DNA of 58,994 nt, counting the filler, from Jimgerdemannia flammicorona (taxonomy: Eukaryota), in assembly GCA_003990765.1 (NCBI GenBank). It is 2 parts of 2 records of this genome, joined end to end, with 100 filler letters (N's around TTAATTAATTAA, not from the genome) between each part and the next. Parts side by side here need not be neighbours in the genome. Positions count along the whole stretch, not along the records: positions 1 to 29,466 come from RBNJ01000498.1; 1 more part is not named here. One strand, written 5' to 3'. Below are positions 1 to 27,722 of the stretch, one piece after another. The notes beneath the pieces are model-generated. The model was not told the DNA's origin and did no database searches. It saw only the letters and a program-made list of their open reading frames with translations. Position 1 is the stretch's first letter, and every line of letters starts with the position of its first letter. Position numbers and translations under genes: made by a program.

Positions 1-184
1 CCCCCCTCTACATCTTTATGATTGAATGCTACTTTACCATCTCTCACTACAACTCTCCCCCCACTCGGCCCACATATCTTCTCTACCAGATGGTGATGAC
101 AACCTCCTTGCAGACCCCATTCCAGCCACCAACCCATCAAGACATCTACTATCAACTCTTTCCATCTCAGTAATTGCTCACCCA

Positions 185-1222
185 CGGTCCTCCCAACACC
201 ATTCCACAACCCCGAAAGCCATTATGACTACCGCGGCGAGACCCACTTTCGATCCCGCCCGAGGCAAAGATAACAAGGGTCCAACCCTTCAGTATAGTAA
301 CCGTGACCTCGCTGCCCACACCAAGCTCAAATTCAGACAACCTGGCCAAGGCATTTCGGACGAGATCGGTGACCGGGAGCGGCTCAAGGATGAGCTCCGT
401 AAAGCCGAGCGCGAGCATTTTGAGCAGGTCTCCAAGGAGAAGGGAGAGTATGTCCCTAGGTCAGCGTTGAAGGAAGGAGAGGAGGATGAAGACATGGAAC
501 CGGCTTTGAAGCGGAGGAGATTAATGGAGGAGGCGACGAAGGCGGCTTGGTTGGATAAGGACGATAGTGATGACGACGATGAAGAAAGCGATAGTGATGA
601 AGATGACGATGGAGATGACACGGCAGAACTGCTACGAGAGCTCGCAAAGATCAAGCAAGAACGAGCGGAGGAAAAAGAGCAGCAGGAACGTGAAAAGCAA
701 GCGGAGGAGGACGCCAAGCGCGCACAAGATATCCTGACGGGCAACCCACTATTGAATCTCGGAGATGGAGCGAAGATGAATTTCAACGTCAAAAACCAGG
801 CGCGCGGGGTGGACGAGAGGCCCAAGAAGCGGTTCGTCAACGATACATTGCGGTCCGATTTCCACAAACGATTTTTGGGCAAATTCATCAAATAGATGAC
901 AGGGCGTGGTTGTTAAGGATTGTAATGCTTCGTGGAGTGGTAGTATTAGATATTATACTTCGGTGGGTGTGAATTGTTGGTATTGCTTAGATTTGGATTT
1001 TGCCCTCGTTTTTTTTTTTTTTTTTCGTAAACGCACGAACAGTTTTCCATCTATCTATTTACTATTGCGGCAAAATGGTCTCTGTATTATTAGAAGAAAT
1101 ACATGAAAATAATGGCACTGGGTTCGCGCCAAGTCCATTGATACAAGTGCTCGCAGAAGTGTCAGATTAGGTAGGAGTAAAAATCAATGCACACTGATAA
1201 ATCTCGTGAAAAAAAAAAAAAA
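185..1222 (+). pseudogene. CWC15: Processed (retrotransposed) copy of a CWC15 mRNA: 5'UTR + intronless CDS + 3'UTR + polyA
   Basis: Exact 16-bp direct repeat AGTAATTGCTCACCCA at 169-184 and 1223-1238, an A-run at 1209-1223, no introns, and insertion inside a LINE. Confidence 0.88.
224..895 (+). CDS. CWC15: Pre-mRNA splicing factor Cwc15/Cwf15 ORF of the retrocopy; open frame but lacks the RRWDDDVVFK motif
   Basis: N-terminus MTTAARPTFDPARG...DLAAHTKLKFRQ, an acidic tract, ELLRELAKIKQER, GNPLLN, and C-terminus KNQARG...FVNDTLRSDFHKRFLGKFIK. Confidence 0.9.
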   Translation: MTTAARPTFDPARGKDNKGPTLQYSNRDLAAHTKLKFRQPGQGISDEIGDRERLKDELRKAEREHFEQVSKEKGEYVPRSALKEGEEDEDMEPALKRRRLMEEATKAAWLDKDDSDDDDEESDSDEDDDGDDTAELLRELAKIKQERAEEKEQQEREKQAEEDAKRAQDILTGNPLLNLGDGAKMNFNVKNQARGVDERPKKRFVNDTLRSDFHKRFLGKFIK

Positions 1223-3818
1223 AGTAATTGCTCACCCAAACTCAGCTCCTCAAAAACAAACAACCAGTGTCCAGCCAATCTCACCCATACAGCCAATATC
1301 CACCCAATAGTGAGCCACTCATTCCCAACCCCACCCACTAATCTATCTCTCAAATTCTCCTAGCAACCCCTCTCATCATCCCTCCTCCTCACAATATCCA
1401 ATCTATCTCCAACTACTAATCAAAAGTCTCCAAGTATATACTTTGCACTATTTCAGCCAATGTTCTGGTATCTGCACAAACCCCCCCTCCTGTCCTATAT
1501 TATAGCACTCCTTACAGTCAAATTATCCCTCTTCCACAAGATGGCCCAAATGAAAGTTGAGTATGATATTCCTCCTCAACAAGTACCACTATACTACTTA
1601 GATCTTAGGTGGTATCCAGCACCACACCTCAGCACTCCAGATCCAGACTCTATCCCAGTCTCACCCTTTATCAATATCTGCCATCTGTCAGCCACTAGGT
1701 CATACATCCTGTTCTAACCCTCTCTGGTACTCTACTCTATTACCAATATCAAAGTCAAGTAGTAGAATATTCTCTAACAATACTAGATCTCATCTTCATA
1801 TCACTGGACTCTATAGCATCTCCCCCTCAGCTCTCTGCCAGTAAAGTTCAATACAGTACACCTCATCAACCACTTCTTATCAGAAGTCTCTATATCACAT
1901 ATGCTCACTATTTCTAATTCCAACCAAAGTCAATAAATTCCCTGAGGATCCTTTTGGTGAAAATCTCATCTCTCAGACCTTTTGTATCAGAGGAACCCAG
2001 CTACCTCCTCTCAGTTTTACAGCCCTCTTCAGCCACCATGCTCTCAGATAGTACAGTCTCTTCAGAAAGTCAACTAGTCTAAGACCACCTCTATCTACTA
2101 GCAATGATAGTATTTCCTAGCTAATCTGACTCTGTCTCTCAGCCCAGATCTATTTCTTGGCTAGCTTCAATAGTCTCTTTACTACCTAGGTTGGAAAGTC
2201 CAAATGATATACTAAATATTATAGTTTTGAAAGCCAGTAGATATTCAAGATTAAAATGTAGTCTACCAAAGAGATGTGACAGCTGCCCCAGCTCTGTAGG
2301 GCCTCTCTTCAAATAACTACTTACTGCTCCCACCAAGTCCTAGAGAGGACTGATCCATAGACTGAAAGAAAAATACCCAAATATCTCACAGTATCTCTAG
2401 TAAGAATAAATGTTCCAATGATATCCCCTCCTATCAGACCATTGCTCAATATTATTATTTCACACTTGCACTAGTTGAGTTTTACCCCAGAGTATACCTC
2501 ATACTACTCTACTATTTCCTTAAGAGTCTCTATATCTACAATTGATCTAAGGCCAATCACTATATCATCTGCAAAGACCCCAATCTTCCAGACAATTCCA
2601 AATACAGAGAGCCTAACTACCTTATAACAAACCTATCTATCAATGGCTCTAAAGATAGAGTATACAAAATAGATAACAGTGAGTCACTCTGAGGAATACC
2701 TCTATCTAGAGAAAATATTACCCCCTGATGGCTATTATATATAAGCACTACTCTACTCTCTTTCAGTAGGCTGATCATTGATACTTGGAACTATGGAGAG
2801 ACTCTAATCCTATCTAGCACCTTCATTAGCCAGACCCATTAGATATGATCATAGGCCTTCTTCTAATCCAGAAAGACCAATCTCTCATCCAGCCTACAGG
2901 CTCAAGCCCCTTCAATGATGTCATGAACCCAAGCTATACCATTCTGAACCAATGAAACCCCATTGCTCCTCACCTAATATTTGCTGGGCCACTCTCTATA
3001 GTCTTGCAATAATCACCTTGGTGACCATCTTCCTATCCATATCCAGGAGCATGATTGGTCACCAGTTCTTTCAATCCTCCCTCCTGCCCTTGTCCTTATA
3101 CAACAACACCACCAGCCCCAGATCCTGGCCTCCCACCCACTTCTCTGACTGAAGTACCAAGTCACAAAGTGCTGTCATCAGGAATTGAACAAATGACTGA
3201 ACTTCGCCGCTCGGGAAGGTTGAAGTCAATGGCAAAACAAGCAATGAAATTAAAGGAAGAACAAAAGAAAAAACCTTATCTGGAGGCTAAACCTAAGGGG
3301 GCTAGCAAAGCTACCAAGGCTAATAGGAGGAAGAAACAAATAACGGATATGGATCATATGGATGAGGCTGAGGGTAGTGATTTTTAAAATATTCAGTTTA
3401 GTATATATCTAAGATTATGTATCCAATTTTTATAACGGGCAATCCAGTTAGATTGAGTATAAAAAAAAAAAAAAAAAAATGGTTACAAAGGAAGCTGGGA
3501 TTGGTATATATATATATAAGAATTTTTTTTGCGAGTCCAGAACTACGTCGCCACATCATTCTATTTGCACTTTATCGCTATCAATTTTTGGGCTCGACCT
3601 TCGGGCGATAGGTGAATCAAAGCAGAAATGACCTATCCAGTGATAGGTGGAGAAATGGCATTTATCAACTCGAATATTTAACCTCTTCACCGTAACTTGA
3701 TAAACAGACATGTCATGAAGTTGACATCTTTCCAATCGAGGACTAGACTGCTCGTATACTGAATTTCGATATCCTACAAGGCCAGCAGGGAAATTTCTAA
3801 TAATCCAAAGGGATTATC

Positions 3819-4097
3819 CTAGATCGCATTAAGATCTATCATTATTCGAGCAATCCTGGCACACCAATTGTAACTGGCAATAGCCATTGCCTGGCAGATT
3901 ATATAAATAAATCTCGCTACCACCTTGGGGGTTTCCAAAAAAAATTGAATTCCCGATTTATCAAAATGGCCTTGCGCGATAACAAACCATTTGTGGCACA
4001 CTAACAAAATCGAAATGAGATTGGTAAAAAGATCCCCTACAACATAAGTGTGTCCAAAAATGCAATACAGAACTTCGGGTGGCAAATTGATGGCCAT
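3819..4097 (-). pseudogene. F-box protein fragment
   Basis: Starts MAINLPPEVLYCIF...ILLVCHKWFVIA (F-box pattern LPxE...LVCKxW); the frame stops after 92 aa. Confidence 0.55.
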
Positions 4098-4587
4098 TTT
4101 TTCTAAGGTGTTACTTGTTCGGATCGAGGGGTATTTATTACTTGATCAGAAGATTTTCTGGAACCTTAAAGATAATTAGAATTCGCGATTATTCGCGATT
4201 TTCACGACTTGGTTAGGTCCAAACGGTTAAAAAAACTTCCGACAATATGATCCAGATGATCCATAGTACAGAAGGAAATCAATTAGTTATCCATGGTAGA
4301 CGCGACCGGTTCAATACAATATGATCCATGATGATCCATAGACCACAAAGAGGATTTAAAACCACCATCTAGCCAGAGCCCGAAAACAACCTTCGGTCTC
4401 ATTTGGGTTCTCCTTCGCGATTATTCAAAAAAGATGTTGTTGCCTACTATTTCGAATGTGGATAGAATAATAGTTGAAAACACTCTCAGATACAAATAAT
4501 TGGATACAGATAGAGATACAAGTGAAATACAAATATCATCCGATACAGTTAACATGCCACTAGATATAAAGTACCAGCATCATATTC

Positions 4588-6891
4588 CTAATCTTCATGT
4601 AATACAACCTCTTTCACGTTATTTCTTTTCTGTTGTTTCCGTATTTGCAAGAATTTGGCTACGCTGACAAAGGTTGTAGCAAAAGCTATAACCGGCACAC
4701 ACCACATATAGGAAACGATCTGGATGAAAAAAAAAAAAAAAAAAATGATAATTAGAAAAACGATAATCCTGAACGAACGAAATAATAAATGTCTGAAACG
4801 AAACCTTCTAAAAAAAAAAAAAAACTTACGTCAAGCAAGGTAATTACATCAGGCACATCCGGTTCGGCGCTGCGGATAGCAGGAAGTGCAAACATCACGG
4901 CAGCGGCGGCGGCTATATATCCCACATCGATATCATGTACCTGTTATTCGGGATGTTGATGTTTTCCGATTTTGAGTGATTAAGTTGGACATCACGTCAA
5001 TTTTTGGAAGTGAAAATAATGTGTGGTAAACAATTTATAACTTACATCTGATGCTGCCATAATTACCAGCATCCATGACAATTGCAATGGAAACAGCAAT
5101 TGCTTTGATCATATTGCTCTTTTCAGCAATTGTATCCACGAAAAACCCACTGGCGGGACCATCTGTGTAATTATAAATATTGTACCGAACAAAGGTAAAT
5201 GGACTAGTTCCTAATACTATCAGGTTGAAGGGGATATATGTGTGATTGTCGTACCATGCTGCTATTTTTAAACGAGAAGAGCATTTCATAAAGGGGTAAT
5301 AAAATATATCACAATTGAGAAAAGGAATTTCTTTCACATCGATGGGGTTAAAGGAATTCGTTCTTGTTATAAGTATAAAAAGTTCCGTCAACATAAAGTT
5401 TGAATGGTTGTTCAACAGATTTTGTGAAAAAATCGTTGACATCAGCTGGTGGAGAAAACTGGATCGAATATGAGACAAACACGGGGATTCTGTGAAAAGT
5501 TGAAGAGACTCAGCTTTTATTTTTATTTTTTTATTTTTTTCATTCGCTGGAAAAATGAAATAGAATTAGAGGAACTTACATTGAAGTTATAGTTATCTTT
5601 GCGAAGTTCGGAAACACATGGAAGGGATCGTGGGAGCCATCAGGGGCTAATTCCATAATCGAACCTGATTCCATGATCGAAGCTGTCTCTGTAATTGCTA
5701 TTGCTTCAACGAGAGCGATTACAATCATTGAAAGAATTACACCAACACAATATCCTAGGAAACGCCCTGGTACGTGAAGAGATGTTAATTTGAATATTAG
5801 AAGAAAGATCTATTATCTTGGTTATTATCAGGTTTCTTTGGTTGATTTGTAGATCTTATCCATATTATACACAATATATAATATTGATTACCTTGGAACA
5901 GGGATCGACTGCCAGTTTCTGTTTGGGCTCCAATTTGGGTTTCATTATTAGCTGCGTTTTGTATCTCTGCGTCCGTGATAGTGCTTTCCACGGGAGGGGT
6001 ACTGACTTGGGCAATGACTGTGAGAAGGGCGATGATGAGGGTGACAGAAATGACCCAAGTAAGGACTGCGGTGAAGGTCAACACAAATCTGAGGTTGTCC
6101 GAATAGTCGAAGGAGGTAGCGGCGACGGCGACGATGGCAGTGGTGTAGGCTAGCCACATGACAGCGAAGATGAGGAAGACGACGAGATGCAATATGCCAG
6201 GAGCGGATTCGGAGCTATGAGCGCCAATGCCGTACTTCCACCCGAAGCTGGATACAACAGTAGTTATGGCAGAGAGAATAGCGAGGCAGACAAATAGTAT
6301 TTGTAAGTCGCTGATCTCATTATCATCTCTTCTGATCAGAATCATAATGATGCTGAGGATGAAGGTGGCAATTCCCAAGGAGCCGAGGACGAGGGTCCGA
6401 ATTCTAAAGTTATATGTTTGAAGGATGACCTCAAGAGAGGCAATGCCAAATTTCGCGGGAGGAGGAGGACTCGTGATATTTCGCGAAGAGTGTTTCTGAC
6501 CTTGGGCAGTGACTATGAGAACGATGAGGGTGACAAAGATGGCCCAAGCGAGGACATCGGTCAAGTACACCAAGGGCGGGATCTCGCAGTTGATGCAGCG
6601 GACGTCGGCGGCGTTGATGGTGGCGGCGATGGTGGCGGCGAGGAAGACAAGATGTAATATGCCAGGAGCGGATTCGGAGCTATGAGCATTTCTCCACACG
6701 AGGCTGGGTACAACAACAGTGGTGGTGGCGGCAGAGAGAATAGCGAAAGAGACAAATTGGAGGAAATTGATATAGTCCATCATCCCTCTCAAGTCCATCC
6801 CACTCAAGTAAATGACGCTCGCGACAAAGGTGGCGACCCCCAAGAAGGCGAGGATGGCCTGTGTTCTAAAGTGGATGGCCTCAAAATTCAT
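4588..6891 (-). pseudogene. Multi-exon polytopic membrane protein: duplicated N-terminal TM block plus a DUF4436-like C-terminus with frameshifts
   Basis: A 364-aa hydrophobic ORF (5797-6891) has a GTAATC donor at ~5891. Downstream GT-AG exons lie at ~5748-5580, ~5490-5045, ~4940-4830 (AVMFALPAIRSAEPDVP, DUF4436-like) and ~4719-4588. Frameshifts are needed near 5075 and 4692. Confidence 0.55.
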
Positions 6892-7315
6892 GATATTTCA
6901 CTTCACTTGTGAGTTGAATGGTGACTTGGAGTGTCATATATATATATGGCAGGGGGGAAGCTAACGATTTGAATGGGGCGGGGTCACAGACCCGAGCTGT
7001 CCACTTCAAAATTCTTATCTTAGTCCCAACTTTTAACCCAAGCCTAACAGCAAAGAAATTCTCCAGCTATATACAAGTAATAGAAACCTGCATTGAATGG
7101 CATGTTTATGTCCCCCACGGTTTCATTGAAGGATGCGTAATACTGGATTAAAATGAGATGAATTTTATTAGCTGGCTTAAAAATAAAAACAAATTTCTTT
7201 TAAAACAGAACTATACTCCATACTTACAATGGTTACTGCAAATGTTAGCTCTCAGATTCCCAAAGTAGTAATTTGGCAGTATGTGGCCAAACTCATAGAC
7301 TTTTTGGGTGCGGAC

Positions 7316-8106
7316 TGTAATAGAACGAACGAGCGACGCGACGAGCGATCACGCGACGAGCGATCACGTGACCCGGCGATGACGTCATCATACGATCGAG
7401 CGCGACATACGATATTACGAACGACGAATGTAACAAACGATGCGAACGACGCGAAAAACGATATCCAGTTTACCCCCAGCAATCAGCGCTGCAGCAACTA
7501 TTGCCACAGCAGCTGATCATTGCCTAGTAATTAAGGTCCTGATCACAAAGTGTTTTTTGCCACAAACCACCTGACAAAGGTCGTAATCACAAACCTCACT
7601 ATAGTTACCAAATTAGTCACTTATACTTAGTCAGAAATCATAGACCAACTTGTATAAATACCCCCCAGTTTCCATCCAAAATAAAGCAGTTTAGTTCAGT
7701 TTTTGATACAAGAATCAAGTCCCCCCCCACATACACACACATTTCCCTGAGTCTTAGTTATGACACCTAAGTGACTCTAGTATTTCTGACTAAACTCCAG
7801 AAGCCTAGCTAACTTCTGCCAGAACTGAGACTGGTATACAAATCACAAAAGACTTAAGTAAACCCATTGAACCTGAATTCCAAGGCAAATTCAGTTTGTG
7901 CACAGCAAAGAATAAGACCCTTGAAAGATAAGGCAAATAAGAAAGATCTTTAAAAGATAAGGCACTGCTACTATAACTACTTTCAAGTAAGCGCTTCCTC
8001 AAACTGAAGGCTTTTTGGTACACATTGTGTACTAAGTCCCTAAGTAATACTTTATTTCCCTAAGTATCCAAAAGATCAGAGAGGGATAGAAATAAAAGTT
8101 ATTATA
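7316..8106 (+). repeat. 5' LTR of the chromovirus
   Basis: Begins TGTAATAG, has TATAAATA at ~7653, and ends AATAAAAGTTATTATA (terminal CA mutated to TA). Colinear with 23440-24239. Confidence 0.92.
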
Positions 8107-8109
8107 ACT

Positions 8110-8118
8110 TGGTAGCAG
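8110..8118 (+). promoter_or_regulatory. Primer binding site, initiator tRNA-Met type
   Basis: TGGTAGCAG lies 3 nt after the 5' LTR and is complementary to the ...GCUACCA 3' end typical of initiator tRNA-Met. Confidence 0.7.
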
Positions 8119-10079
8119 TAGATTATCAAGTCAAGAAGACACTTCTGAGAAGTTAGAATAAGACCAACCTTAGACAGGAGTAACCCCCAGAACCAACTGT
8201 GGATTCCCTAGGATCAAACCCCCAAACCAGAGCCAGACAAGCCCTTGCCACATTAAGACCAGGTGGTACCAGGAAACCACAGACCCAGGGACCCATCAGC
8301 TTGTAATTGACTAAATATAAAAGGATCTATACCAGGCCTTTAGAACTTTCCACCCAGGACTTAGGAATATAGTTAGCCACTATAGGTTCTATGAACTTCT
8401 CTATGGCCACATTGGAACCACTAGAACTCCAGAATCTACTGCTATAGTTACTTAGGATTTTCTAGATTACATCTTACTCTCTGCTATAAGAGAAGTAGCT
8501 ACTGAGTGGATTACTTCTGATAGATATCATCACACTCCTACCAAGACCTCCTTCTACTATAGGCTAGTTGTATACTATGCCTTTACTATAACAAGGTATG
8601 AGAACAAGTAAGTAGGCCACCTATCTCCTATTATTAAATAAGAAGCAAGTCTATCTACTTAGCCAGAACTTGATATCCTCTTTGAAGGACCCAGTCAGTA
8701 TGAGGATACACTATCTCATCAGGAAAGAGAGTTGGATGAAGACTATATACTATACCAGTCTGATGATAGCCAATAAGGAATAACAGGCCTAGGAATTTAC
8801 CAAAGAACCACAGATCAAGAAGATCAGACCTCAGAACCAATCCAGCTACCTATATAGAGGTTTGGTTTATCCTCTCTCACAGGACTATTTGATCTGATAT
8901 TTGGGAATCAAGTAACCCTAAGTCATACAGCACCACAACCTCATCAGGCAGAATAATCTTTAAGAGAATCTACCCCTATAGATCCACTACCAATAGTCAA
9001 TATAATGGTAGATATCAATATTGCAGCACTGACTACCCAGCTAGTCATATAACAGGAATAGTAGGACAAATTGCTGAACAGAACAAACTAACCAAGACCT
9101 TGCAAATTCTAACATTTAGTGGAAAAAACAGCAATATTGAAATCTTCATTAATGCAGTTGATACAGATTACCAAGCAAACCAATGAAATAACAACTGAGT
9201 ATCTACAGGAATACTCACCAATAACCAGAACAATACTCTTTAACAGTGGTTTGCCACATCAGCAGTACAAGTGAAAATAGTAGTCACATTCTTTACTAAA
9301 ACAGTACCAAATTCTGATATATCTTAGAAGAATACCCAGTAATCTGGGAAGACTGCCCTCTAGTCAATAGACAAGTACTTACCAATAACAGACCAGGTTG
9401 AAATAACTATGAAGCAGGCCCAGGACTCAAGGCCCTGCTACTGACCAAATTCTGAAATACAGCCTATATATAAGAAACTTAGAATAAACTGGCCCAGATG
9501 AAGTTCTATAAGAATGATGAGAAGGATCTAGAAATCTTTGCCACTAGGATGGATGCTTATCTCAAAACCATTAGACTTATCTACTAGGAAAACAATTTGG
9601 CTATCAATGGTACTAGAGCCAACCATCTCTTTACAACTCTACCAGACTGGCTCACTCAGAAGATTAAAAAACAAGGCCTCCCCCAAGGATGCCCCCACTA
9701 CTCATAGTGCTTTGCCTAAGTACAAAGAAGAGCCCATGAAATTCTTGCTGTACAGGCTCCACAAAATCCAGAATACAAGAAGGATAACTAAGATAGGAGG
9801 AATCTCATCAGAAGGAATGATCAAAGGAATGATTAAAAGAATGATCAAAGGAACTAGCAAAACCCCAGAGGACCAAGACCTCCCACTGAGGATGAAAAGA
9901 AGTAGCTTCACAAAAAAGAATTGTGTTTTATCTACAAGAAGGCAGGACACATCTCAGTCAGATGCTCTGAGAAGAAAAACAGATCAAGTGAACCCAGTAA
10001 CCAGAACATTACTATTATTGAAGAAGGTCCAGGAAAGAAGAACTCTAAGAATATCAATAAAGTGTAGAAGATATGGTAC

Positions 10080-10465
10080 AAGACTACTATCTCCACTAAG
10101 ACTCATCTCACTGATATAGAATATGACCTCTATAGTAGTTAAAGACCTCACTATATCACAAAGTACTAATACTATAGTACAAATAGAGATTATAATACAA
10201 GCTTCCAAAGATATATATATCCACCTTACTGAGTAAAGCAGCCTGGCTAAAGAATTCAACATCAGGCTAGGAGGAGGAGTAGTTGACCAAGGATTTACTG
10301 GTGAAATCTATATCATCTTGTAAAATTTTGGAGATATCTCATTTGAAGTCAAAGCAGGCCAAAGAATTGTCTAAGCAATCATTAAAGATCCATCAAGATC
10401 TCACTATTGAAGAAGTCCCCAAGCTCTTTCAGACAGACTGGGACAAGAAAGGGTTTGGATCAACT
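10080..10465 (+). pseudogene. Retrotransposon-borne trimeric dUTPase domain
   Basis: All five motifs appear in order: DIEYDL (AGYDL-like), *SSLA (RSSLA), GVVDQGFTGEI, GQRIV* (GQRIAQ-like) and WDKKGFGST (RGxxGFGST). Confidence 0.85.
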
Positions 10466-12605
10466 AACAAACCTCTTAGTCAAAAGGTCACCACTATGAA
10501 GAAAGATGATGAAAACTAGTATAAGAAAATTGCAGATGGTTATGTGCCATGTAGATAATACCCTCATTCTATCTGAATATATCATATAGAATATTTTGGT
10601 GAATAACATGTATACCTCTCTAAAGTTTTCAAAATCAACTCTGAAAGATGTCAAGCCCAACAGACTGAGGAATCCAAACAAGACCACTCTCCTTATAAAG
10701 GATAGGAATAAACTGACTTTGAGGAGACTGATAGTAATTGGGACAATAATGAGGATAAAGAGCTCAATACTATCAAGAAGGAGGACAGTTGTATCAAATT
10801 CACAGGCCAAGTCTACAGACAGAATGTCAGTGTCTTACTTGACAGTAATGCTATTGGAAACTATATCAGTATTAGGACAGCCAAGAAGATTGGAGTCTGA
10901 AGCAGACCAGCTACCAAGAAAAGGAGTATTATTTTTGGTAATAGTAAGATTGCACCACTAACTAAGATCTATAAAGATCTATTGCTTAATATTGGCAAAT
11001 ATTAAGAGAAGTTGGACTTCAGTATTATAGATCTTCCAGAATAAGACATTATTCTAGGAAAAGCCTGATTGACCCAGTATAACCCAGATATCAACTGAAG
11101 GACCAATGAGGTTAATCTGATCTATGAAGACAGAAAGATCACTCTAGCACTCTAGAAAGATACTAATCATCAAGGAATCAAAATCATCTCTACCATTCAA
11201 ATAAAGAGACTCTCCCAAAAAAAAAGGAAACACCTACTTCATCTGTACTATATAAGAAGTCACCAAAGCTCTGAGTAGCCCAATCCCAACAGAAGCTCAA
11301 CAACTATTTGAGAAATTCTAAGATATATTTCAAGACCCCCAAGGACTTCCACCTAAGTGTTAAATCCAACATAGAATTGATCTTATTCCAGAATCTGAAC
11401 CTCCATACAAGAATATGTATTAACTGGCCCAACCTGAACTTAAGACCCTCAAGGATGAGTTGATCAAACTATTGGCCTAAGAATATATTGAACCCAGCTG
11501 CTCTCTCTTTGGAGTCTCCATTCTGTTTGTCAAGAAGAAGGGTGGCTCTCTGCAAATGTATATTAACTATAGAGCCCTCAATAAGATCACTATTAAGAAC
11601 CAATATACCTTATCTAGGATTGATGAGTTGTTGTACCAAATCTTCAAGGCCAAGACCTTTTCCCTACTAGATCTATGAAATGACTATCACCAGATTCTCA
11701 TTGATGAGAAAAATATTAAAAAAACAGCTTTCTGAATATGATTTAGATACTATCAGTTCTGAGTTATATCTTTTGGTTTGACTAATATATCAGCAACATT
11801 TTAGTATCTGATAAATGATATCTTTGGACCACTTCTCAATATTTATGTCCTTATATATATTGATAATATACTAATCAACAGTGAAACAGTAGAGTTACAC
11901 TATACCCACCTCAGATAGGTACTGACCCTTCTGTGAGAACACTAGCTCTATGTCAAGTTAAGTAAGTATAAGTTCTATCAAGATCAGATTGAGTATCTAG
12001 GACATATCATCTCTGCTGAAGATATCAATGTAGACCCTCAAAAGGTATCAGCTCTTAAGGATATTCCCATCTCTACTACCCTCAAGCAACTCCAGTGCTT
12101 TCTGGATATTGCCAGTTACTACCAAAGGTTTATCTAAGGATACTCTACTATTGTAGCCCCACTGACCAGCCTAGCCCACAAAAGAGTGGACATTAAGACT
12201 GAATAGATCCTTGAGTATACTCAGGCTATAGACTACCTTAAGAGACTTCTTATCAAGGCTCCCATACTAATTATATCTGACCCTACTAGGCCATTTACTC
12301 TGACTATAGATATCTCTGATATTGCCATTGGGGTAGTGCTCAGCTAAAAAGATCACCCAGTAGTCTATCTTTCTCAAAAGCTTAAGCCAGCTGAGATCCG
12401 GTATACCATCTATGAGAAGGAACTCCTGGCCATTATTACTGCACTCTAGAAATAGTGACATTTCCTTTTAGAATAACTATTTATAGCCTATACTGATCAC
12501 TATACTCTGCAATACATTCACATATAGTCCATACTGTCCCACAGACAAGTCTGCTGGATAGAAATCATGGTCAACTTTAATATAAAAATCAAGTATATCT
12601 CAGGT

Positions 12606-15600
12606 CACACACCTTTCTCAGCTAATATTCATGTTATACACACTTTACAACACACTCTCAAGTTATTTATTGGAGAAAGGTGATAAGGAAATGGCAAACA
12701 ACAAGCATTCTGGGGTGTGTACTAGGCAGGGCAGCCCTAGCGCATTCAACTAGCAGCAGGTGGGGAGAGGTCCTGGCCTGGGGGGTGGTATGAGAGGGCT
12801 GTTGGCAAGAGAATGAGGAGGAGGTGGAGACAGCAGTGGAGGACAGGTGTCTGGGAGGGTGAGCTTTGCAGAGATAGTAAAGGGGAGGCAGCAGATAATA
12901 GGGCTGGAGGATTGGCTGAGGAAAGGTAAGGAGATGGAGACAATGACAGTTCACAGGAGAGTAGCACTTGGGGGTGAGGGCAGTGGAGCTGGGGGAGTAG
13001 TGGCTGGGGGGGTGTGATGGCTGATGGTGACAGGACTGCCAATCTAGAAAAAAATCCAGATGTGACAGCTAATGGTATGGCTGAGCAACTGAGGCTTAGA
13101 AGGCAGGGAGATTTGGCAGATGGTATGATGGGCCTAATGGTGGTGCTATTACTCAAGAAATCAATCTTGGTGTTTGCAGTGACATTGTGCTTCCAGGGCC
13201 TGGTGGTGATGGTGAAAATGGTATTGGGGCTTATTGCTAAGCAGGTGGCTAGAGCAGTATCTGTGAAGTTCCTGAAGGGATTGGAGGGAGTAGAGGTGGG
13301 TTTTGAGAAGGCTAAGCCCCAGGAGGAAGCACTGAAGATTGGATTGATTGTTAAGAAGATATGTGTCCTGATGGTATGCTGTCTGAAATGGGACCCCAGA
13401 GTGGTCCAACTGCTGGTGAAAGGAGTGCCCACAGTGATGGCAGTGGAGATGAGAAGGAGAGTCAAAGAGGTCATGGCAGAGTATGGTGAGGTAGTGGATA
13501 TTGGGTTCAGGGTCTGGGAAGGGACCTCACTCAGAACTGGAGATGTGGATGTGCAGATTTGGCTAGTAGGAAAAGAAGCCACAGGGAAGACAAGGGACTG
13601 GCCTTCAGTGATGGTCTGAGGGGTGATCTTATGCAAGATGACAAGGGTGAAGGGGAGTGAGGAGGAGGAAGAGAACTTGCTAGAGATACTGGAAGAGATG
13701 AGTGGAGTGGCGAAGCAGCAGGCAAAGGCTTAGAGGTCCTTTGTGGAGTTGACATACTTGAAGATAGTAGATGGGAAGAGGATCAGAGTGGACAAGAGGC
13801 AATGAGAAAAAGCTCAGAGTCATAAACATCAGAAGGAGTTACTTGTTAAGATGGAGAGTTGATTGCTAAAGGAGGTAGGTGGAATGGTGGAACCAGGGGG
13901 TACCAAGGTGAGTGTCTGGGCCAGTGAGAAGGGTGGGAGTGTAGGGAAAGAAACAGAGGAGGACAGGAAAGCAGCTGGTGGTGACCCATATGCTGATGGT
14001 ATGCTCAAGGTCTGGGAGGAGGACTGGGAGGGGTTGCCTACCCCTACCCCCCTCATCAGGCAAGGGCTGGCTTACCAGAGCAGGGCAGGAGAGGATGTGC
14101 TAATAAAGGGGGCCTAGCAAGTGCAATTTGGCATACCTGAGGTAGCAAATGGGGGACAGGTGGTGGCAGTTGGAGAGGAGGAATTGGTAGATGTCTCAGA
14201 GATATGAGATGAGGCTGTGAGTACCAGGGCTGATACCATGATGTTGGATAGTAGAAGACCAGCAACCTTGGGAGAGAAGGAGGTGGGAATGACTGGGTGC
14301 AAAGAGTCTGGCTGGCAAAAGTTTTGGATAGAATGGGGGTTCTGCATCAATTCCAGTCAGCAATGGTCAGCCTACTGGAAGGGAGTAGGGCTGCACTCAT
14401 GTGTAATGGACATAGAGGGGTAGCATTCCCCTTGGATAGTGGGGTGCCCCAGGGGGATCCATTGTCCCCCATTTTATATGCTCTTTTCCTGGAACCCCTT
14501 ATGGACAGAATTAGGTGGAGGATAGTGGGGCTCTCTGTCTTTGGCATAGGATGGAAAGTTGGGGCCTTTGCTGATGACATGGTGGTGGGTTTGGGTTTGA
14601 TTGCTGATGTTGAGGAGCTCAAGAAGACTGTGGAGTGGTATGAGGAGTACTCTGGAGCTAAGCTGAATTGGCATAAGTGTGAGATGATAGTGCTAGGCAA
14701 TGGCCTGGTGGGAGGGGAAGTTATAGGAACAATCGTCCCCACCGGTGAAGCAGTGCAGTACTTAGATATCTACTTGTCAGTCTATGGGTCAGTTCTGCCC
14801 AGGCTTTGGTGGGAGCAGAGGATTGGAATCTGGGAGGAGGCCCTGCAGAGTTGGGGGGGAAGATATTTTTCTCTGGCAGGGTGGGTCTCAATTTTGAATG
14901 TCTACTGGCTGCCAAAGTTGTAGTACCTGGCATATCATCTGGACTTCCCAGCCTGGGTGGTGAAGAGATTGATAAAGTTGGTGAAGGGATGAATTTGGAC
15001 TGGCAGGCAGAGTCAGATTAGTTGGGAGACCTTGTCCCTACCAGTGGCAAGAGATAGTCTTAGGCTGGTTGACTTTCCAAAACAGTTACACTGCTTGAGA
15101 GCATGGTGGCTGAAGAGGGCAGTGGAGTTGAGAGGAGGTAGATGGGTTTCTCTGCTACAGAAGATATGGGAGAGGTAGGCATCACTAAGGGGCTCAACTA
15201 GTGATCTCCTCTCCTTGGTTGGGCTTCAGAACACTGCCCAACTGCGATATAAAGGATTTTGGTGGGGGATTGCAGAAGGGGTGCACTGCATGGGTATTCA
15301 TTGGCAGGGGAATGAAGGAGAGGAGGATTGGGACCTGGCAATGTGGAGATGGAATCGTATACTGCTGGGTGGCACTCCTTTAATTGAGTTCAACATTAGT
15401 GATGGAATGGAATGCCAAAGGGGACCAGGCCAGGATCTGTGGCCTAGCAGTTGGCAAGGAGTTGGAATTGGCGAAGAGTGGAACAGGCATGGTATTTGGA
15501 TCTGGAGTGCTGCAGTGAGAACATGGCTGCTGCCAAAGTACTGGGTGGTCTGGTGGTGCATGCTGCAGAGGAATGTTATGCTCAACTTTTGCTCAGGGCA

Positions 15601-18600
15601 CCTTGTCATAGGGGATTGCTTTGACTGTGAGGAGTGCCATAATGTAGGGCAAGAGGGGGGTTATATACAGACACCAGAACATTGGCTAGAAGAGTGTGAG
15701 GTGTTGGGAGATTTTTGGCAGACAATTGAGAATCACTTGGGGGTACAGGGTAGGAGTGATAAAGTATGGGAGAGGTGGGAGAACTTGAGGGATAGATTGG
15801 TAGGGGGGATAGAGAAGGAGTGGCTTACTTTGGATTGGGCTTTGGCTATTTGGGTAGGGCTGGCCAGCCATTGGCTATTTGTTTTTGAGGATAGGAGGAG
15901 ACAGAGCTTGGGGGACCAGTTGCTGCAGTGGCATAGGCTTATGGAAGACACCTTAACAGGCTGGTGGCTGGGTTGGGAGATGTGGGGTGGTCAGAGGCGC
16001 TGCTTGGTGGAGAAAATCTGTGGGCAAAGTGGGGGGAGAGTGGGGGTAGTTGGTGAAAGGGTGATTTTCATTCATGAGAAAGTAGGGAGGGGCCCCTCTG
16101 TGGGGATTGGATAGTGGGTAGGAATAATATATATTTATTCATAGACTGGTAATAAAGGTAGAGTCCAAGTAACTATAAAAAAAAAGAAAGAGAAGGAGGT
16201 GGGAAATCTACTTTGGATGTGCAGGATGATGAATAACCTGGCAGCTGAAGAGCTTGGGGAGGTGGACTTGAGGGTGATAAGTGATGAGTATAGGGCATGG
16301 GTATTGCAGAGAGATAGTGTGGAGTTGGTATTGAAGGCAGAGATCCTTGCAGTATATCTGGAGGAGGAAGGGTATGAGGTGGATAAGGAGTGAGAGGCTG
16401 AACTAGTAGAGGTTACTGGTGAGAGGGCCAAGTACTGTTGGGCCAAGCGACATGGGTTGTAGCTCTGGCAGGAGGCCTGTCTGGAATACTGAGAGGAGTT
16501 TGAGGAGAAGGCAGATGAAGAGATGAATGAGCTGTTGGCTGGATTGGAGGCTCAGAGGACTGAAGAGGAGGTGGTGACTGCAGAACATAATCTGGACATA
16601 GTACAGGAAGAGATGAACTTGGAGCAGTAGAGATAGACTGGATAAAACCACTATACTTCAATATGAATAGTACAATCAACATTTTTTCACTGAACATAAA
16701 TGGGTTATGGGGTACTTCTAGATGAAGGAACATTTTTACTTGGCTGAAGGGATTGGAGACTGATCTCTTCCTCTTGCAGGATGTCAGGTATGAAGATGAT
16801 TTGAATAAACTGGAATGAACAAAGAAATGGGGAGGTGAGGTAGTTTGGATGGGCAAGGTTAGGATTCTGATATAGAAAGGCAGAGGGGAGATAAGGGATA
16901 TGCAGAGCTGGGGGAATAGACTGGTCTGGGGTAAGTGGATATGTACTGGATAGGAGCCAATTACAGTGGGATCTTGTTACTGCCCTGCTATATAGGGTGA
17001 GTATATGGACTAGGTGAAGAGTCTTCAAGAGAGTAGAATACTTGCAGAGGCTGGGGTGGATGTACTGGGTGGAGACTTTAATATGATTTGAGAGGTACTA
17101 TTAGATAGAACAGATGGAGGACAAGGAGTTGAGGGTCAGAGTGGAGGGCTGGTGGCATGAGAGGAAGTGGAAAGGCTGAGTGCTCTGATGGATGCAGGTA
17201 GGAAGTACTGGGGAGATAGGAGAATATACATGCATTAGGCAGAAGGCTTGGAAACAAGAATTGATTGGATTCTGATGGCCAGCTGCTGGGGTTTGGATGT
17301 TTGGAGGTCACTGGAGGTGGAATGGTGTCCTTGGTCAGATCATTGAGGGATTCTTAGACAGGGTCAGTTTGGGGGAAGTGGGGATGGGCCTGGACATTGG
17401 CACCTCAATTCCTCCTTATTAGATGATAGGATCTGGTGAGATGGGTGGGCTGCAGACATTCAGCTACAGGTAGAGTGTTGGAGGCAGGAAGGTACCCCAG
17501 TGGGTATTTGGTAGATGAGGATAAAGGAGATGGCCAAGACATACTGGAGTGAGGCTGGCAAGGAGGCTGAGAAACAGAGAAGGCAAAAGGTGAGATGGGC
17601 TTCTAGTAGACTGTCTAGGCTCTTAGGAGATTGGGCAAGACTGATGACATTGGAGAGGGAGGAGAATTGGAGGTCCATAAGAGTGAAAAAGGAGGTTGGT
17701 GAACTACAACAGATGCTGCAGGAGGAGGAAGAAGTGAGGGTGAAGGGCTTGGCAGCTAGGCTATATTGGCAGGGTTTGGAAGAAGAGAAGAGGCCCTCTA
17801 AGTTTCTCATGAGGGCCTTTCAGGCAAGGAGAGTGCAACAAAGGTGAGAGGGAGTGCTCAACTCTGATGGTATTCTGGTCCATAGTATTTAAGATATTCT
17901 TGGATCTTTAAAGGAGCACTGGAGTGGATTGTGGAGTGAGGAGAAGGGTGGGGTAGATGCCAATGTGATTGGCTGTGTATTAGAAGATTGGTAATCTCTA
18001 CAAGTAGATGAGATGGGTGACTTGGTATTGCCAGTCCAAGAGGAGGAGATCTGCCAGGTTCTCACCATGACAATGCTGGGTATGGCACCTGGAGAAGATG
18101 GTTTGCCCTGGGATTTCTTGAAGAAAATGGTTGGGAACTGAGTGAGATGATAGTATTGTGTGATCTTATTCTACAGACAGGAAGATGGGTGGGGGAATAG
18201 GATCTGGGATTGGTGATATTGCTCTACAAGAACAAAGAAAGGTAAGAGGACTGGAAGAACTGGAGGCCAATTATGCTCTTGGATATAGACAGAAAGTTGG
18301 TTACTAAGGTGGTGGTTGTGAGGCTACAAATGGTGGCACAGCAAATCTTAGGCATTGAGCAGAGGGGCTTTGTAGAGAGATGGCTCATTAGGGATGGCAC
18401 AGCCTGGGTACATGGAGTTATTGAAGGGGCATGAGCTTGTGGATTGGATGGGTGCCTGGTCTTCTTGGATCAGGAGAAGGCTTATGACCAGGTGAGATGA
18501 GTCTGGCTGGTGAAAGTTTTGGATAGGGCTGGGGTTCTGCACCAGTTCCAGTCAGCAATGGTCAGTCTACTGGAAGAGAGTAGGGTGGCACTCATGTGTA

Positions 18601-20369
18601 ATGGACATCAAGGAGTGGCTTTTCCCCTAGGTAGGGGGGTGCTCCAGAGGGACCCATTGTCCCCCATTTTGTATGTCCTTTCTCTGAAACTGCTACTGGT
18701 TAGAATTAGGCAGAAGATAGTGGAGCTCTCTATCTTTAGCATTGGGTAGAAGGTAGGGGCCTTTGTAGATGATATAGTGGTTGGACTGGGATCAATTGCT
18801 GATGTCAAGGAGCTTAAGGAGATAGTGGAGTGGTATGAGGAGAACTCTGGGGTGAGACTTAATTAATATAAGTGTGAAACAATGGTGTTAGGCAATGGTC
18901 TGGTGGGCAGGGAGATTATTGGAACAATTATCCCTGCTGATGAGGCAGTGTGGTACTTGGATATCTATCTATCAGTATATAGATCAGTACTACCCAGGCT
19001 TTGATGGGAGCAGTAGGTTGGTATCTGGGGGGAGGCCCTGCAGAGTTGGGGGGGCTGTCAATTGTCTCTGGCAGGGTGTGTTACAATTTTGAACATCTAC
19101 TGGCTGCTGAAGTTGTAGTATCTGACATATCATCTGGACTTCCCATTCTGGGTAGTGAAGCAGCTGATGAAGCTTGCCAAGGGATGGATCTGGGCTGGAA
19201 GGAGGAGTCAGATAATCTGGGAGGTCTTATCCTTACTAGTGGCAAGTGATGGACTGGGACTAGTTGACTTTCCGAAGAGGCTACACTGCTTGAGAGTTTG
19301 GTGGTTGAAGAGAGCCATAGAATTGAGAGGGGGTGGTTGAGTTCTCCTATTGCAGAAGGTTTGGGAGAGGCAGTCCTCACCAAGAGGCTCAACTGGTGAT
19401 CTCTTATCTTTGGTTGGACTTCAGAACACTAATCAATTGTGGTATAAAGGATTCTGGTGAGGGATAGCAGAGGGGGAATACCACATCAGGATCTGTTGGC
19501 AGGGGAATGAAGGAGAGGAGGATTGGGACCCAGTGATGTGGAGATGAGACTGGGTGCTACTGGGTGGCATCCCATTACTTGAGTTTGACATTAGTGATGG
19601 AATGGACTGCTAGAGGGGACCAGGTCAGGATCTGTGGCCCAGTGGTTGGCAAGGTGTAGGAATTGGCAAGAAGTGGGACTGATGTAACATTTGAACATGG
19701 AGTGCTGAGGTGAGAAGATGGATGCTGCTGAAGTACTGAGTGACTTGGTGGCACATGCTGAGGAGGAATATCATGCTCAATTATCACTTGGGTTACCTTG
19801 TTGAGGGGGGTTGTTTTGATTGTGAGGAGTGCTATAATGTAGGATAAGAAGGGGATTATATACAGATACCTGAACATTGGCTAGAGGAGTGTGAGGTACT
19901 TAGTGACTTTTGGCAGACTATTGGGGATCATTTGGGGGTAAGGGGCAGGAGAACTGGTGTGTGGAGGCAGTGGGAGAATTTGAGAATCAGACTGGTAGAG
20001 GGGGTGAGAAAGGAATGGCTCATGCTAGGCTGGGCTCTGGCCATTTGGGTTGGGTTGGCTGGTCACTAGTTATTTGTTTTCAAGGATGGGAGGAGACTGG
20101 GCTTAGAGGTCTGGCTGCAGCAGTGGCATAGCCTTATAGAGGATACCTTGATGGGCTGGTGGCTTGGTTGGGAGATACCAGGGGGCTGGAGGTATCATCT
20201 GGTGGAGAAAATTTGTAGGCAGAGTGGGAGAAGGGTAGGAGTGGTGGGGAGAAGGTGGTCTTTGCTTGGGTTGGGGTGGGGAGAGGCCCCCCTATGGAGA
20301 TTGGGTAGTGGAAGGAAGACTGTATATTTAACAATAGACTGGTAATAAATGGCAGAGTCCAAGTAATTA

Positions 20370-20397
<28 letters not shown>
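12606..20397 (+). mobile_element. Apparently full-length L1/Tx1-like LINE (5'UTR, ORF1, APE-RT ORF2, polyA/(TA)n tail) inserted at the end of the Gypsy RNaseH
   Basis: TSD TATATCTCAGGT (12594-12605) / TATATCTCAGAT (20398-20409); removing the insert restores KYISGKTNYMADGFSR. ORF2 starts MNSTINIFSLNINGL (~16661) and contains GGDFN, SDH, PGEDG, LDQEKAYD, RDPLSP and FVDD. Confidence 0.9.
14290..16188 (+). mobile_element. 5'-truncated LINE of the same family, inserted in ORF1 of the larger LINE
   Basis: Exact 17-bp TSD AGAGAAGGAGGTGGGAA at 14273-14289 and 16189-16205. Contains PQGDPLSP, FADD, the C-terminal CxxC...TPEHWLEEC, AATAAA and a polyA tail. Confidence 0.92.
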
Positions 20398-20401
<4 letters not shown>

Positions 20402-23400
20402 TCTCAGATAAAACCAACTATATGGCTGATGGTTTCTCTAGATATATGGAAGATGAACTTGTCTTTATGGTCAAGATAATTAGAGACCTTACCCAGATGA
20501 TTAAGGATAGTTATTAACAAGACAGCCTCTTGGTGAAATTCCTTCAATTCTGCCAAGACCCAGAGACCAAAGTCCCAGAATCTATGAGGCAAATGTCTAA
20601 GAGATTCACTTACCAAGATAGACTTATCTACAGAGACCATAACAGAGTAGTTATACCTAACAATGATACTCTGCAACTTAAGATTATGCAGGAACTCTAT
20701 GATACTCCTGCAGTAGGACACTTTGATTTCAAAAAAATCTATAACCTCCGCTCAAGAGAGTTCTACTGGCCAAAGATAAACAAGGACATTAAAGACTTTA
20801 TAATCTTATGTAAGATATGTCAAAGGTTCAAAAGTAGTAACAAGCTACCCACAGGACTTCTGCAATCTCTGCCTATCTCAAGTCACAACTGAGGCCAGAT
20901 TGTAATAGACTTTATTATCCAGCTCTCCAAGACTAAGGCAGGATGGGATGCCATTATAGTATTTGTGAACTACTTAAGCAAATAAGCCCATTTTGCATCC
21001 ATTAAGACCACTGTGACAGTACCAGAGATTGCTAAGATTTTCCTCAACCAAGTATTCAGACTATATGACATATCTAGTACTATTGTATCTGACTGGGATA
21101 TAAAGTTTATAAGCAACTTCTGGAAGGCATTCTTCTCTCTCCATAGAACCAAGCTGAAGTTCTCTACTGTCTACCACCTCCAGACTGATGGTCAAACTAA
21201 GAAAACTAACAGAACTCTTAAGCAGATGCTTAATATCTTCTGTTGTTATAAGCAAAATGATTGGAATAAGTACCTAGCCCATGCTGAGTTTGTCTACAAC
21301 AATAGTTAGCAAACCTTTATAAAGAAGACTCCATTCTTTCTGAACTATAGTCAATACTCAAGGACCCTAAGCACCACTGTGAAATCAGCAGTTTCAGCAG
21401 CCCAAGATTTGGCCAAGACCATTTCTGATATTACTCAAATAACAAGAGATGCTCTCATAGAAGTATAGAACTATCAGACCAAGTATACAAACTTGAAGTG
21501 AAGAGAAGTCTCCTACAATATTAGTGACATAGTCATACTTAGAATAGACCACCTCTACTCAGATACCCTAGCACAACAACTAGCTAAGAAACTCTGTACT
21601 AGAATTATTAGACCATATAAGATTGTGAAAAAAGTCAGTGAAGTCAACTACAAGTTACAACTCCCCTACAATATTCAAGTACACTCAGTATTCCATATCA
21701 GTCAACTGGTGGACTACCATGAGAACTAATTCTCTAAGCATATAGTTCTACCACTACCACCAATTAGGATCAATGATTATAAGAAATTCAAAATTGAGAA
21801 AGTACTTGACCACAAGGTCTACAAATATCCCAAAATATTCAAGCAGTTTTTCCTCATCAAGTAGAAGAGTTATCCCAACCATGATGCTACCTGGGAAAAA
21901 GAAAAAGCTCTGAAGAATATATATGAAGCCCTCCAGAACTATATAGAAACACTCACTCCTTAGTAAAGAAAGAAATTACAGCTCTAAGGCTTAAAGCACA
22001 TAGTAATAAAAGAAGACACCATATATTTATCTGAAATATACAATACTGAACATTACAGAAAAAGGAATACTATAACTAATCAATAAGGAAGATACTCAGA
22101 CAAAGAATAAATTCAGTATGATATAGTAAAATACATTTGAACAACTCTATTTTATACTATCTGTATCATCTCTGCTGGATAATGATAGATACTTCATATG
22201 GAACTTAGAAAAGCCAACAATGTCAAAACCAATCTAAGTCCATCTACATGACAGATATTGTTACTAGGAATTGCCTTAAATTATAAGAAATACTATTTCT
22301 GAGAGATTTGAACTTCCAGCCATAACAATGAGAGCCCTCACCCTAGACAAGGATGGCCAGTTCTTGTAAATATACCAACCAGATAAAAAAAAAGAGAACC
22401 AAGATCTGTCAACTCTGTGTAACTACAACTGTAAGTAGCAATATCTTTGAAATTAGGATTTTCTCAGGTGACTAGTATATACTCTGCTTACAGCAACAGA
22501 TCACACATTCTGCTAAAAAGCATAATTATATCAAGATCATACCAGACTGACAAATAAGTATAAATATCCAAAGCAAGAATACACCACAACCCTTATCTCT
22601 CTCTCTTCTCACAAAGAAAAGACAAGACAAGAATGCCTGTTATCTACTGCTAAACTGCCTGCTATAGCCACTCTCTCCCAAGCCAGATTGACCACCTCTT
22701 TGGACACATTCAGATTGCTATTCAAGGAAGAAACTGCTGCTCTGAGACTCTTAACCTCTCCAGCTAGGACCTAGAATATTATGTTCTCAATTGCTATAAA
22801 GTCATTGAAAGGGCCTACCTTGCTACCAGCTGCCTAGAGATCTGGTATAAATACAAAATTGGCTACCAACTTCTCTAATATGCAAAGAACCTACTTATTG
22901 ACCAGATCTCAGACTAGACTCACCTAGACAGACACAAGCAAAGACTAACCAAGAAGGTCTATCAAATCATGTGCTATATACCTGAAGGATTTCCAGAACC
23001 TCTTCTTCTCTAAGATTGATGAGCTAGAGATCAAGGTAGCCCAAGAAGCTAACTTCTGAATTATCCTCAAGTCTACTAACTGTAAACTCCACTGGAGCTC
23101 CCTTCTGAATGACAATTCCAACCAATGGCTCCAGGATCTCTCTGATCTCTTTGAAGGACCACCTATCTGAATGGATATCCCCAGGTATAAGAATCAAGAA
23201 CCCTACTTAGATGGTCCCAACTGCATTCAATAGAGAACCCCTATACTAATACCCATACCAATTCAAGAATCATTTGCAGACCTCATTAACTTCTTTATCC
23301 TGAACTTCAAACTATTAGCAACTACTCCCTCAGCCACTAGAGAAGAAGATAACAATACTGAGAAGGATTCCCCACCTTTCTTTCCTCTGGTTCTCAATTT

Positions 23401-27284: not shown

Positions 27285-27722
27285 TGAGCTAGGAGGATTT
27301 GAGATCTCAACTAGTGGGAGGTGTCAGCAATGGGTGGCTCACTGTAGGGTGGGTTTTAGCAGTATGGGTAGGGTTGGCTGGACATTGGCTCTTTGTTTTT
27401 GAGAAAGAACAACAGATAGGTGTGCAGGAGAAGTTGTTAAGGTGGGAGGGGTTGTTGGGTGATCTGCTGACTGGGTGGTGGATTGATTGGGGTCCCCAAG
27501 GTGGGCAACATTGCCATCTGGTAGAAGGGATCTGTGAACAGAGTGATGGGCAGATAGAGATGGTGTTTGACAAAGTAGTCTTTCATCAAGAGAGAGTGAG
27601 GGGGGGGCCCCTAGGGGGATTGGATAGGGTGAGCTTTGTGTATTATATAGAGGATAAATAGGTGTACTAATAAAGAAAGGAGTCTGAGTGACTATAAAAA
27701 AAAAAAAAAAAAAAAAAAAAAA
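27285..27722 (+). mobile_element. Short 5'-truncated LINE with polyA tail
   Basis: ORF2 C-terminus LVGGVSNGWLTVGWVLAVWVG, AATAAA, a long polyA, and TSD TCAATGGATTC at 27274-27284 and 27723-27733. Confidence 0.9.

Follow-up and report, generated by a model that had tools for sequence, protein, structure and literature searches.

An intronless CWC15 unit interrupts a LINE

How does a compact, intronless gene for a spliceosome subunit come to lie within the remains of a retrotransposon? The question is raised by the start of a 58,994-nt stretch of DNA from the fungus Jimgerdemannia flammicorona (GenBank assembly GCA_003990765.1; positions 1 to 29,466 come from RBNJ01000498.1), here called the window, where a CWC15 open reading frame (ORF) on the plus strand sits in a minus-strand long interspersed nuclear element (LINE), referred to as copy A. 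We consider it very probable that a CWC15 mRNA was recently inserted into this old LINE by LINE-type target-primed reverse transcription (TPRT) in trans, that the product is a young pseudogene, and that an intact CWC15 lies elsewhere.

Direct reading of the sequence delimits an mRNA-like unit at 185-1208 on the plus strand. Its 1024 nt are comprised of a 39-nt leader, an ORF that runs uninterrupted from the ATG at 224 to the stop codon at 893-895, and a 313-nt trailer. A poly(A) tail follows, and an exact 16-bp target-site duplication (TSD), AGTAATTGCTCACCCA, flanks the whole (Table 1). The first A of AGTAATTGCTCACCCA is common to the A-run at 1209-1223, so that the end can be read either as A15 with 15 bp or as A14 with 16 bp. 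The ORF matches the Pfam family Cwf_Cwc_15 (PF04889) along the entire profile (1-244 of 244; E 3e-65, 220.9 bits with a gathering cutoff of 30.4), and both the N-terminal block MTTAARPTFDPARG and the C-terminal block KKRFVNDTLRSDFH of CWC15 are retained. An earlier, sequence-only reading of this DNA had described an intronless CWC15 unit with untranslated regions (UTRs), an A15 tail and an exact TSD, and this description is borne out by the direct reading, by script, and by the Pfam match. A tblastn search of the window for a second CWC15 gave the self match, all other matches having E >= 1.1.

The host, copy A, is decayed, with many stop codons and frameshifts and with no CpG dinucleotides. 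Its matches to the reverse transcriptase (RT) domain RVT_1 lie in two frames at ∼2370-2920 (profile positions 55-140 and 147-203), and the plus strand of both insert flanks is rich in C and poor in G. We made an empty site by script, cutting 185-1238 out of the window, and compared it by BLAST with the other LINE copies in the window. Three paralogous copies (B, C, and D) cross the junction as single BLAST segments of 1306-2111 nt with 65-68% identity, and in a multiple alignment each of the three has the duplicated stretch once, with no break. These LINE copies, uninterrupted at the empty site, are the strongest evidence that the CWC15 unit is an insertion. The exact 16-bp repeat by itself is only moderately improbable, because in this repeat-rich window 26 of 19739 16-mers taken at random anchors recur exactly in the 8 kb upstream; it is the empty-site alignment that is decisive.

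The sequence-only reading had also placed the insert within ORF2 of the LINE. In copy C, the best preserved of the copies, the ORF2 frame is open at 15179-16114, and the equivalent of the insertion point lies ∼65 codons before its stop. Since this frame continues past the insertion point, the insert indeed splits the C-terminal region of ORF2. A 5' or 3' transduction by the host LINE was considered and is ruled out, as the insert is internal, is antisense to the surrounding LINE and has its own TSD.

Could the junctions be an artefact of assembly, with cDNA or transcript contamination merged into a LINE-rich contig? Neither junction is bridged by an independent DNA contig, and the scaffold contains N gaps elsewhere (29467-29566). 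However, a chimera would not place exact copies of a 16-bp LINE target precisely at both ends, and the copy differs from the abundant transcript described below by a 30-nt deletion, two substitutions, and one indel. We therefore regard an artefact as very unlikely and treat the unit as a genuine insertion.

A second CWC15 sequence in transcript-like contigs

In an index of sequencing runs, X1 and X2, which bear the label of one and the same organism, hold 61 and 49% of the sampled words, respectively, and several root and soil runs hold small shares. Contigs of these two runs and of two root metatranscriptomes, X3 and X4, were placed on window positions 1-1600 at 80% likeness. One X1 contig (816 nt, depth 1696) spans 239-1023; it departs from the window copy only by two substitutions, an additional T, and an insertion of 30 nt after position 788. 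Another X1 contig, at 1083-1198, is identical to the window copy. An X2 contig (1050 nt, depth 508), which starts directly behind an Illumina adapter, covers 212-1198 and has the same 30 nt; it carries 15 substitutions, two of them common with X1 and 13 more, and three further indels, nearly all in the 3' UTR. An X3 contig likewise begins at 212. X3 and X4 contribute a few contigs of 151-161 nt on the coding sequence (CDS), two of which show no differences; other pieces from these runs resemble the copy only in the acidic low-complexity stretch 553-618. Positions 185-211 and 1199-1208 lie in gaps of the contig cover.

The window locus as assembled cannot encode contigs holding the 30 nt. Material that bears the label of the same organism therefore contains another CWC15 sequence, which is intact and abundant. 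The sequence-only reading had made its case depend on the existence of another CWC15 locus, and the X1 and X2 contigs, with 30 nt that are absent here, answer this indirectly in the affirmative. Because their depth is high, one 5' end is capped by an adapter, and the insert flanks have no 95% match, our guess is that X1 and X2 are RNA, which is much likelier than DNA. The depths of LINE-like contigs, 2-390, are far below those of the CWC15 contigs.

Apart from small indels, the copy is colinear with X1 (239-1023 and 1083-1198) and with X2 (212-1198). Given the shared X1-type 3' UTR and only two substitutions from X1 in 901 aligned nt, the copy is very young and derives from an X1-type lineage.

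The 3' UTR itself differs among contigs. At 1043 X1 and X2 contigs branch into unlike sequence that starts with GT(GT)GTTGG and in X2 is 255 nt long or more; other contigs continue past 1043 like the copy. The branch hints at a retained 3' UTR intron that is missing from the copy. In addition, in a 389-nt X1 contig 1083 directly follows 1037, and the 45 nt skipped have the non-canonical ends AA..TC. Because of this skip and the branching at 1043, we conclude that the source organism has a variable or alternatively processed CWC15 3' UTR.

Loss of a conserved segment and the fate of the copy

Putting the 30 nt back into the copy yields ...NFNVKRRWDEDVIFKNQARG... in frame upon translation, and in an alignment with eight homologues the window protein has a 10-residue gap exactly at the deletion. 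The lost segment belongs to a highly conserved part of the protein: RW[DE][DE][DE]V is found in 119 of the 120 homologues listed, and the one exception is the model of this very locus. The deleted segment starts with TCAA and is followed by TCAA, which gives a 4-nt microhomology and five possible registers. Since TCAA stands at both ends and no register gives GT...AG, the loss is best read as a microhomology deletion, by a slip of the RT or by later deletion in DNA, rather than as a splice variant. Splicing was also rejected as the cause of the gap because 30 nt are too short for an intron.

Two substitutions are specific to the copy (Table 1). Both are transitions, one synonymous and one non-synonymous. 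No contig of X1-X4 carries the deletion junction 788/789, although contigs cannot show the absence of a transcript. As the most conserved block is deleted, the changes are one silent and one replacement, and there is no sign of an own transcript, the copy is probably a young processed pseudogene, which would have lost its function although its frame is still open. The features by which a functional retrogene is recognised, namely kept motifs and either constraint or own expression, are not those of this copy. The term retrogene, used in the sequence-only reading, is overstated for a copy that lacks the invariant KRRWD(D/E)DV(I/V)F motif and has an R-to-Q change at a CpG. A different combination, in which a currently active L1-like LINE retrocopies host mRNAs in Endogonales-like fungi and this very young copy with its intact ORF is expressed as a variant (for instance competing or dominant-negative) spliceosome subunit, seems improbable to us, as does a sole CWC15 locus with a polymorphic deletion.

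The closest named orthologue of the window protein is that of Endogone sp. (72% identity), followed by those of Umbelopsis, Mucorales, and Glomeromycotina at 50-60%, which marks the source as an Endogonales-like fungus within Mucoromycota. A search for the parent gene bears on another possibility, namely that the copy is an orphan retrogene, the sole CWC15 gene left after loss of its intron-bearing parent; X1 and X2 would then represent undeleted alleles of this locus, with strain polymorphism or an assembly error accounting for the 30-nt gap. This agrees with the intact ORF, with the colinearity of transcripts and copy over 212-1198, and with the fact that a collection of 5.8 billion proteins holds no second CWC15 protein of this genome. 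However, the same collection models the present locus as a shortened protein of 198 aa, which implies that gene calling may miss split genes. Moreover, the X1 and X2 contigs branch at 1043 into sequence absent from this locus, no contig links transcript sequence to the LINE flanks, and a sole copy is unlikely to miss a motif kept by all but one of the homologues listed. An orphan retrogene is thus quite improbable, and we keep to a young pseudogene accompanied by an intact CWC15 elsewhere.

The resident LINE family and the mode of insertion

The 3' ends of the LINE family in the window consist of a short 3' UTR, AATAAA, and poly(A) of A9-A27 (A9 at 16177, A9 at 20371, A13 at 37134-37146 on the other strand, and A27 at 27696). 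Copy C is flanked by an exact 17-bp TSD, AGAGAAGGAGGTGGGAA. A recent-looking 3' fragment with the A27 tail has an exact 11-bp TSD, TCAATGGATTC, directly adjoining the tail on one side and the beginning of LINE homology on the other. The genome therefore contains a LINE that uses poly(A)-primed TPRT, as characterised by an RT, AATAAA with A9-A27, and TSDs of 17 and 11 bp. Among solved structures, the LINE RT is nearest to human L1 ORF2p (E 1.3e-14, with R2 proteins at 3.8e-05), and a PDB search with the LINE C-terminal ORF gave chance-level matches only. We use "L1-like" to describe how the LINE works, and not as a tree-based clade placement. An AP-endonuclease-like stretch in copy B and a Cys/His stretch (CxxC...H...C) in the LINE translations were recognised by eye only.

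As AATAAA, poly(A) tails, and duplications of 11-17 bp are found in this LINE family, TPRT in trans is the best mechanism for the CWC15 insert. This is also the process that had been proposed from the sequence alone, and it is well supported by the TSD, the A15 tail, the empty site, and the tails and TSDs of the LINEs. In this scheme, an intact CWC15 locus elsewhere would provide abundant transcript, and an active L1-like LINE of the poly(A) type would use its endonuclease/RT to reverse-transcribe, in trans, a CWC15 mRNA that the Endogonales-like fungus had spliced and polyadenylated. The target of TPRT would be an old, dead LINE of the same family in the opposite orientation, where the cDNA would enter the C-terminal region of ORF2 and 15-16 bp would be duplicated. 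The 30 nt between the two TCAA would be lost during reverse transcription, by template slippage, or afterwards, the timing being presumptive. The poly(A) and TSD anatomy of this particular family makes it the putative enzyme donor.

The cDNA might instead have been made by another RT, such as that of a long terminal repeat (LTR) element, and integrated by recombination or end joining. The window does contain an integrase fragment (Integrase_H2C2, E 1.1e-16, 20518-20889), and Ty1-mediated retrogenes are known in yeast (PMC5470649). Nevertheless, poly(A) abutting a TSD of 15-16 bp, with no LTR at either end, is a signature of TPRT, and the LINE family of the window shows the same tail-plus-TSD anatomy. 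LTR integrases produce duplications of 4-6 bp, which also argues against this route. We consider it highly improbable, and return to LINE-type TPRT.

Several observations nevertheless weigh against TPRT of a spliced parental mRNA. The parent CWC15 locus is presumed, as are its introns; if X1 and X2 were DNA, the second CWC15 copy would be intronless over the CDS. No protein between 72 and 100% identity is present among 3038 CWC15 homologues; a search among shorter proteins for exon-sized pieces of a split parent gave 71 matches, the best at 70%; and none of 592 pattern matches in JGI metagenome contigs was confirmed as a CWC15 copy. With contigs starting at 212 and depth otherwise nil over 163-211, the stretch 185-211 is a putative CWC15 leader. 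Support for the junctions rests on the assembly, as no contig of X1-X4 is at least 95% alike on the LINE flanks or bridges 184/185 or 1238/1239, which shows a lack of cover only. The bottom-strand nick site, ...AATTACT/GAG, is unlike the T-rich L1 consensus; nicks of the form /GAG occur in two of three cases here. As for the donor, the Pfam scan of LINE translations reported RVT_1 only, with no endonuclease domain, and 0 of 1816 candidates provided an intact full-length ORF2 or a full-length relative of the LINE C-terminal ORF, which is weak evidence.

The repeats of the window are partly nested. At 13000-20379 copy C lies within a longer copy of the same family, whose poly(A) end at 20371-20379 leads into a (TA)n run. 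Directly 3' of this run stands the Ty3-type integrase fragment mentioned above, and the LTR-retrotransposon integrase region as a whole spans 20518-21306. Two N runs of 44 nt at 29467-29566, inside a LINE-rich stretch, were read as scaffold gaps.

Table 1. Coordinates of the CWC15 insert, its host, and related LINE features in the window
Feature	Position	Strand	Basis or remarks
Host LINE copy A, distal ORF2 C-terminal part, continues beyond the window edge	1-168	-	LINE alignments
5' TSD AGTAATTGCTCACCCA	169-184	.	Direct read and script; one contiguous stretch in paralogous LINE copies
5' leader of retrocopy	185-223	+	Transcript support for 212-223 only
CWC15/Cwf15 ORF, intronless, 223 codons + stop	224-895	+	Pfam PF04889
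Copy-specific T (C in X1, X2, X3), GGC>GGT, synonymous	280	+	
Copy-specific A (G in X1, X2), CGG>CAG, CpG>CpA, Arg153>Gln	681	+	Orthologue consensus R
Junction of 30-nt in-frame deletion, removes KRRWDEDVIF	788/789	+	30 nt present in X1 (1696) and X2 (508)
3' UTR of retrocopy	896-1208	+	Colinear with X1 contigs (to 1023; 1083-1198) and X2 contig (to 1198)
Poly(A) tail, A15	1209-1223	+	Sequence read
3' TSD AGTAATTGCTCACCCA	1223-1238	.	Direct read and script
Host LINE copy A, RT and C-terminal region, 5'-truncated near 3185	1239-3185	-	RVT_1, alignment to B/C/D
LINE copy C, AATAAA + A9, RVT_1 E 1.4e-12	14290-16185	+	17-bp TSD 14273-14289 / 16189-16205
Recent-looking 3' LINE fragment, 411 nt, AATAAA + pure A27	27285-27722	+	11-bp TSD 27274-27284 / 27723-27733
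Match to empty-site query 45-2125	20243-18146		68% identity
Match to empty-site query 52-1781	16041-14306		65% identity
Match to empty-site query 40-1329	37268-38564		67% identity

CpG content of the copy and of its host

The retrocopy contains 66 CpG dinucleotides, with an observed-to-expected ratio (o/e) of 1.12, whereas the LINE flank at 1239-3180 has none in 1942 nt. The o/e is 0.01-0.06 in the other LINE copies and 0.89-1.19 in the gene-rich DNA at 39-59 kb, and the CpG loss in the window is thus a repeat-specific process. The recent-looking A27 fragment, flanked by its exact TSD, also has 0 CpG with 16.4 expected, which suggests that the LINE family is CpG-free already on insertion. For this reason CpG loss does not date the host LINE, and we rejected it as an age marker. 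The sequence-only reading had contrasted a copy that keeps its CpGs with a LINE that has lost them and had taken this as a sign of youth or of escape from silencing. The contrast stands (66 vs. 0), but it does not work as a clock, and the youth of the copy is shown instead by its two substitutions in 901 nt. A host-derived insert that retains CpGs in a fully CpG-depleted repeat helps to time the CpG-loss process.

The base composition of the LINEs is skewed as well. In the copies at 1239-3180, 13000-20372, 27000-32000, and 37135-38564, the sense strand has a G content of 0.35 and a C content of 0.13-0.15; CpG is almost nil, and TpG and CpA are raised (1.2-1.5).

Other genes and inserts in the window

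The Pfam scan covered 123 of the 162 ORFs of the window; the other 39 were omitted by hand, all of them in the repeat-rich first 37 kb and outside 38.6-59 kb. Combined with the ORF scan, it places EMG1 in three ORF pieces and an LtrA-like gene in two, and for RPS15/S19 and RPB10 a single ORF holds only a part of the domain. On the other hand, the 4HBT, Complex1_LYR, and DUF2358 domains each lie within one ORF. The statement in the sequence-only reading that every other host gene in the window has introns is therefore supported for the split or partial EMG1, LtrA-like, RPS15, and RPB10 genes, and does not extend to the three single-ORF domains.

Two more stretches near copy A end in poly(A). 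At 4171-4757 lies a 545-nt unit with an A19 end and GATAATTAGAA on both sides; it has no ORF, no other copy in the window, and a normal CpG content (21 observed, 19.3 expected), and Rfam had no match at E <= 0.1 on positions 1-12000. This unit may represent another retrocopied host RNA. We do not count the 11-bp repeat around 4182-4745 as a TSD, since random 11-mers recur at 179 of 19351 anchors and a repeat of this length is not significant here. At 3190-3479, adjoining the 5' truncation of copy A, a Lys-rich ORF of 64 codons with CpGs is followed by ∼80 nt and A19; this may be another poly(A)-ended insert or plain host DNA.

Comparison with known systems

Gene retroposition by LINEs is textbook knowledge in mammals. 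Like mammalian L1 retrocopies, the CWC15 unit is a full-length copy of a presumably spliced mRNA with poly(A), a TSD of ∼15 bp, no parental flanks, and a repeat-rich target, and, as in the mammalian L1 system, the resident LINE RT is nearest to human L1 ORF2p among solved structures. Unlike mammalian L1 retrocopies, it resides in an early-diverging Endogonales-like fungus, and its nick site is not TTTT/AA. With regard to the CWC15/Cwf15 family (PF04889), the window copy matches the full length but lacks KRRWD(D/E)DV(I/V)F and has R153Q.

In fungi, retroposition has hardly been studied, according to a 2017 review (PMC5470649), and our literature search, which covered journals outside subscription, listed one paper that mentions both processed pseudogenes and Mucoromycota, and no description of LINE-made mRNA retrocopies in that phylum. 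The nearest fungal case is the MGL LINE of Magnaporthe grisea, which makes chimeric retropseudogenes; one of them is flanked by identical 14-bp direct repeats, which the authors take as proof of LINE involvement (PMC2104539). Both there and here the LINE machinery of a fungus would act on cellular RNAs. However, the MGL products are fusions of non-coding RNA, short interspersed nuclear element (SINE), and LINE sequences formed by template switching, whereas the window copy is one protein-coding mRNA copied whole, and for its 30-nt deletion a template slip is only one possible cause.

Ty1-mediated yeast retrogenes (Derr et al., 1991, as cited in PMC5470649) are similar in that a cellular mRNA is reverse-transcribed in a fungus. 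Unlike them, the window copy has no LTR flanks, and its poly(A) and long TSD point to TPRT and not to integrase or recombination.

The new elements of the present analysis are the loss of the 30 nt encoding KRRWDEDVIF, the X1 and X2 versions that hold these 30 nt, and the divergence from X1 of two substitutions in 901 nt. A young retrocopy with poly(A), an exact TSD, and a demonstrable empty site points to recent LINE activity in trans in the large, repeat-rich genome of a plant-symbiotic, early-diverging fungus, and can serve as a template for a genome-wide count of retrocopies. Set beside the mammalian, MGL, and Ty1 systems, it represents no new mechanism; it is a clean and unusually young case of a known process in a lineage where that process is seldom documented.

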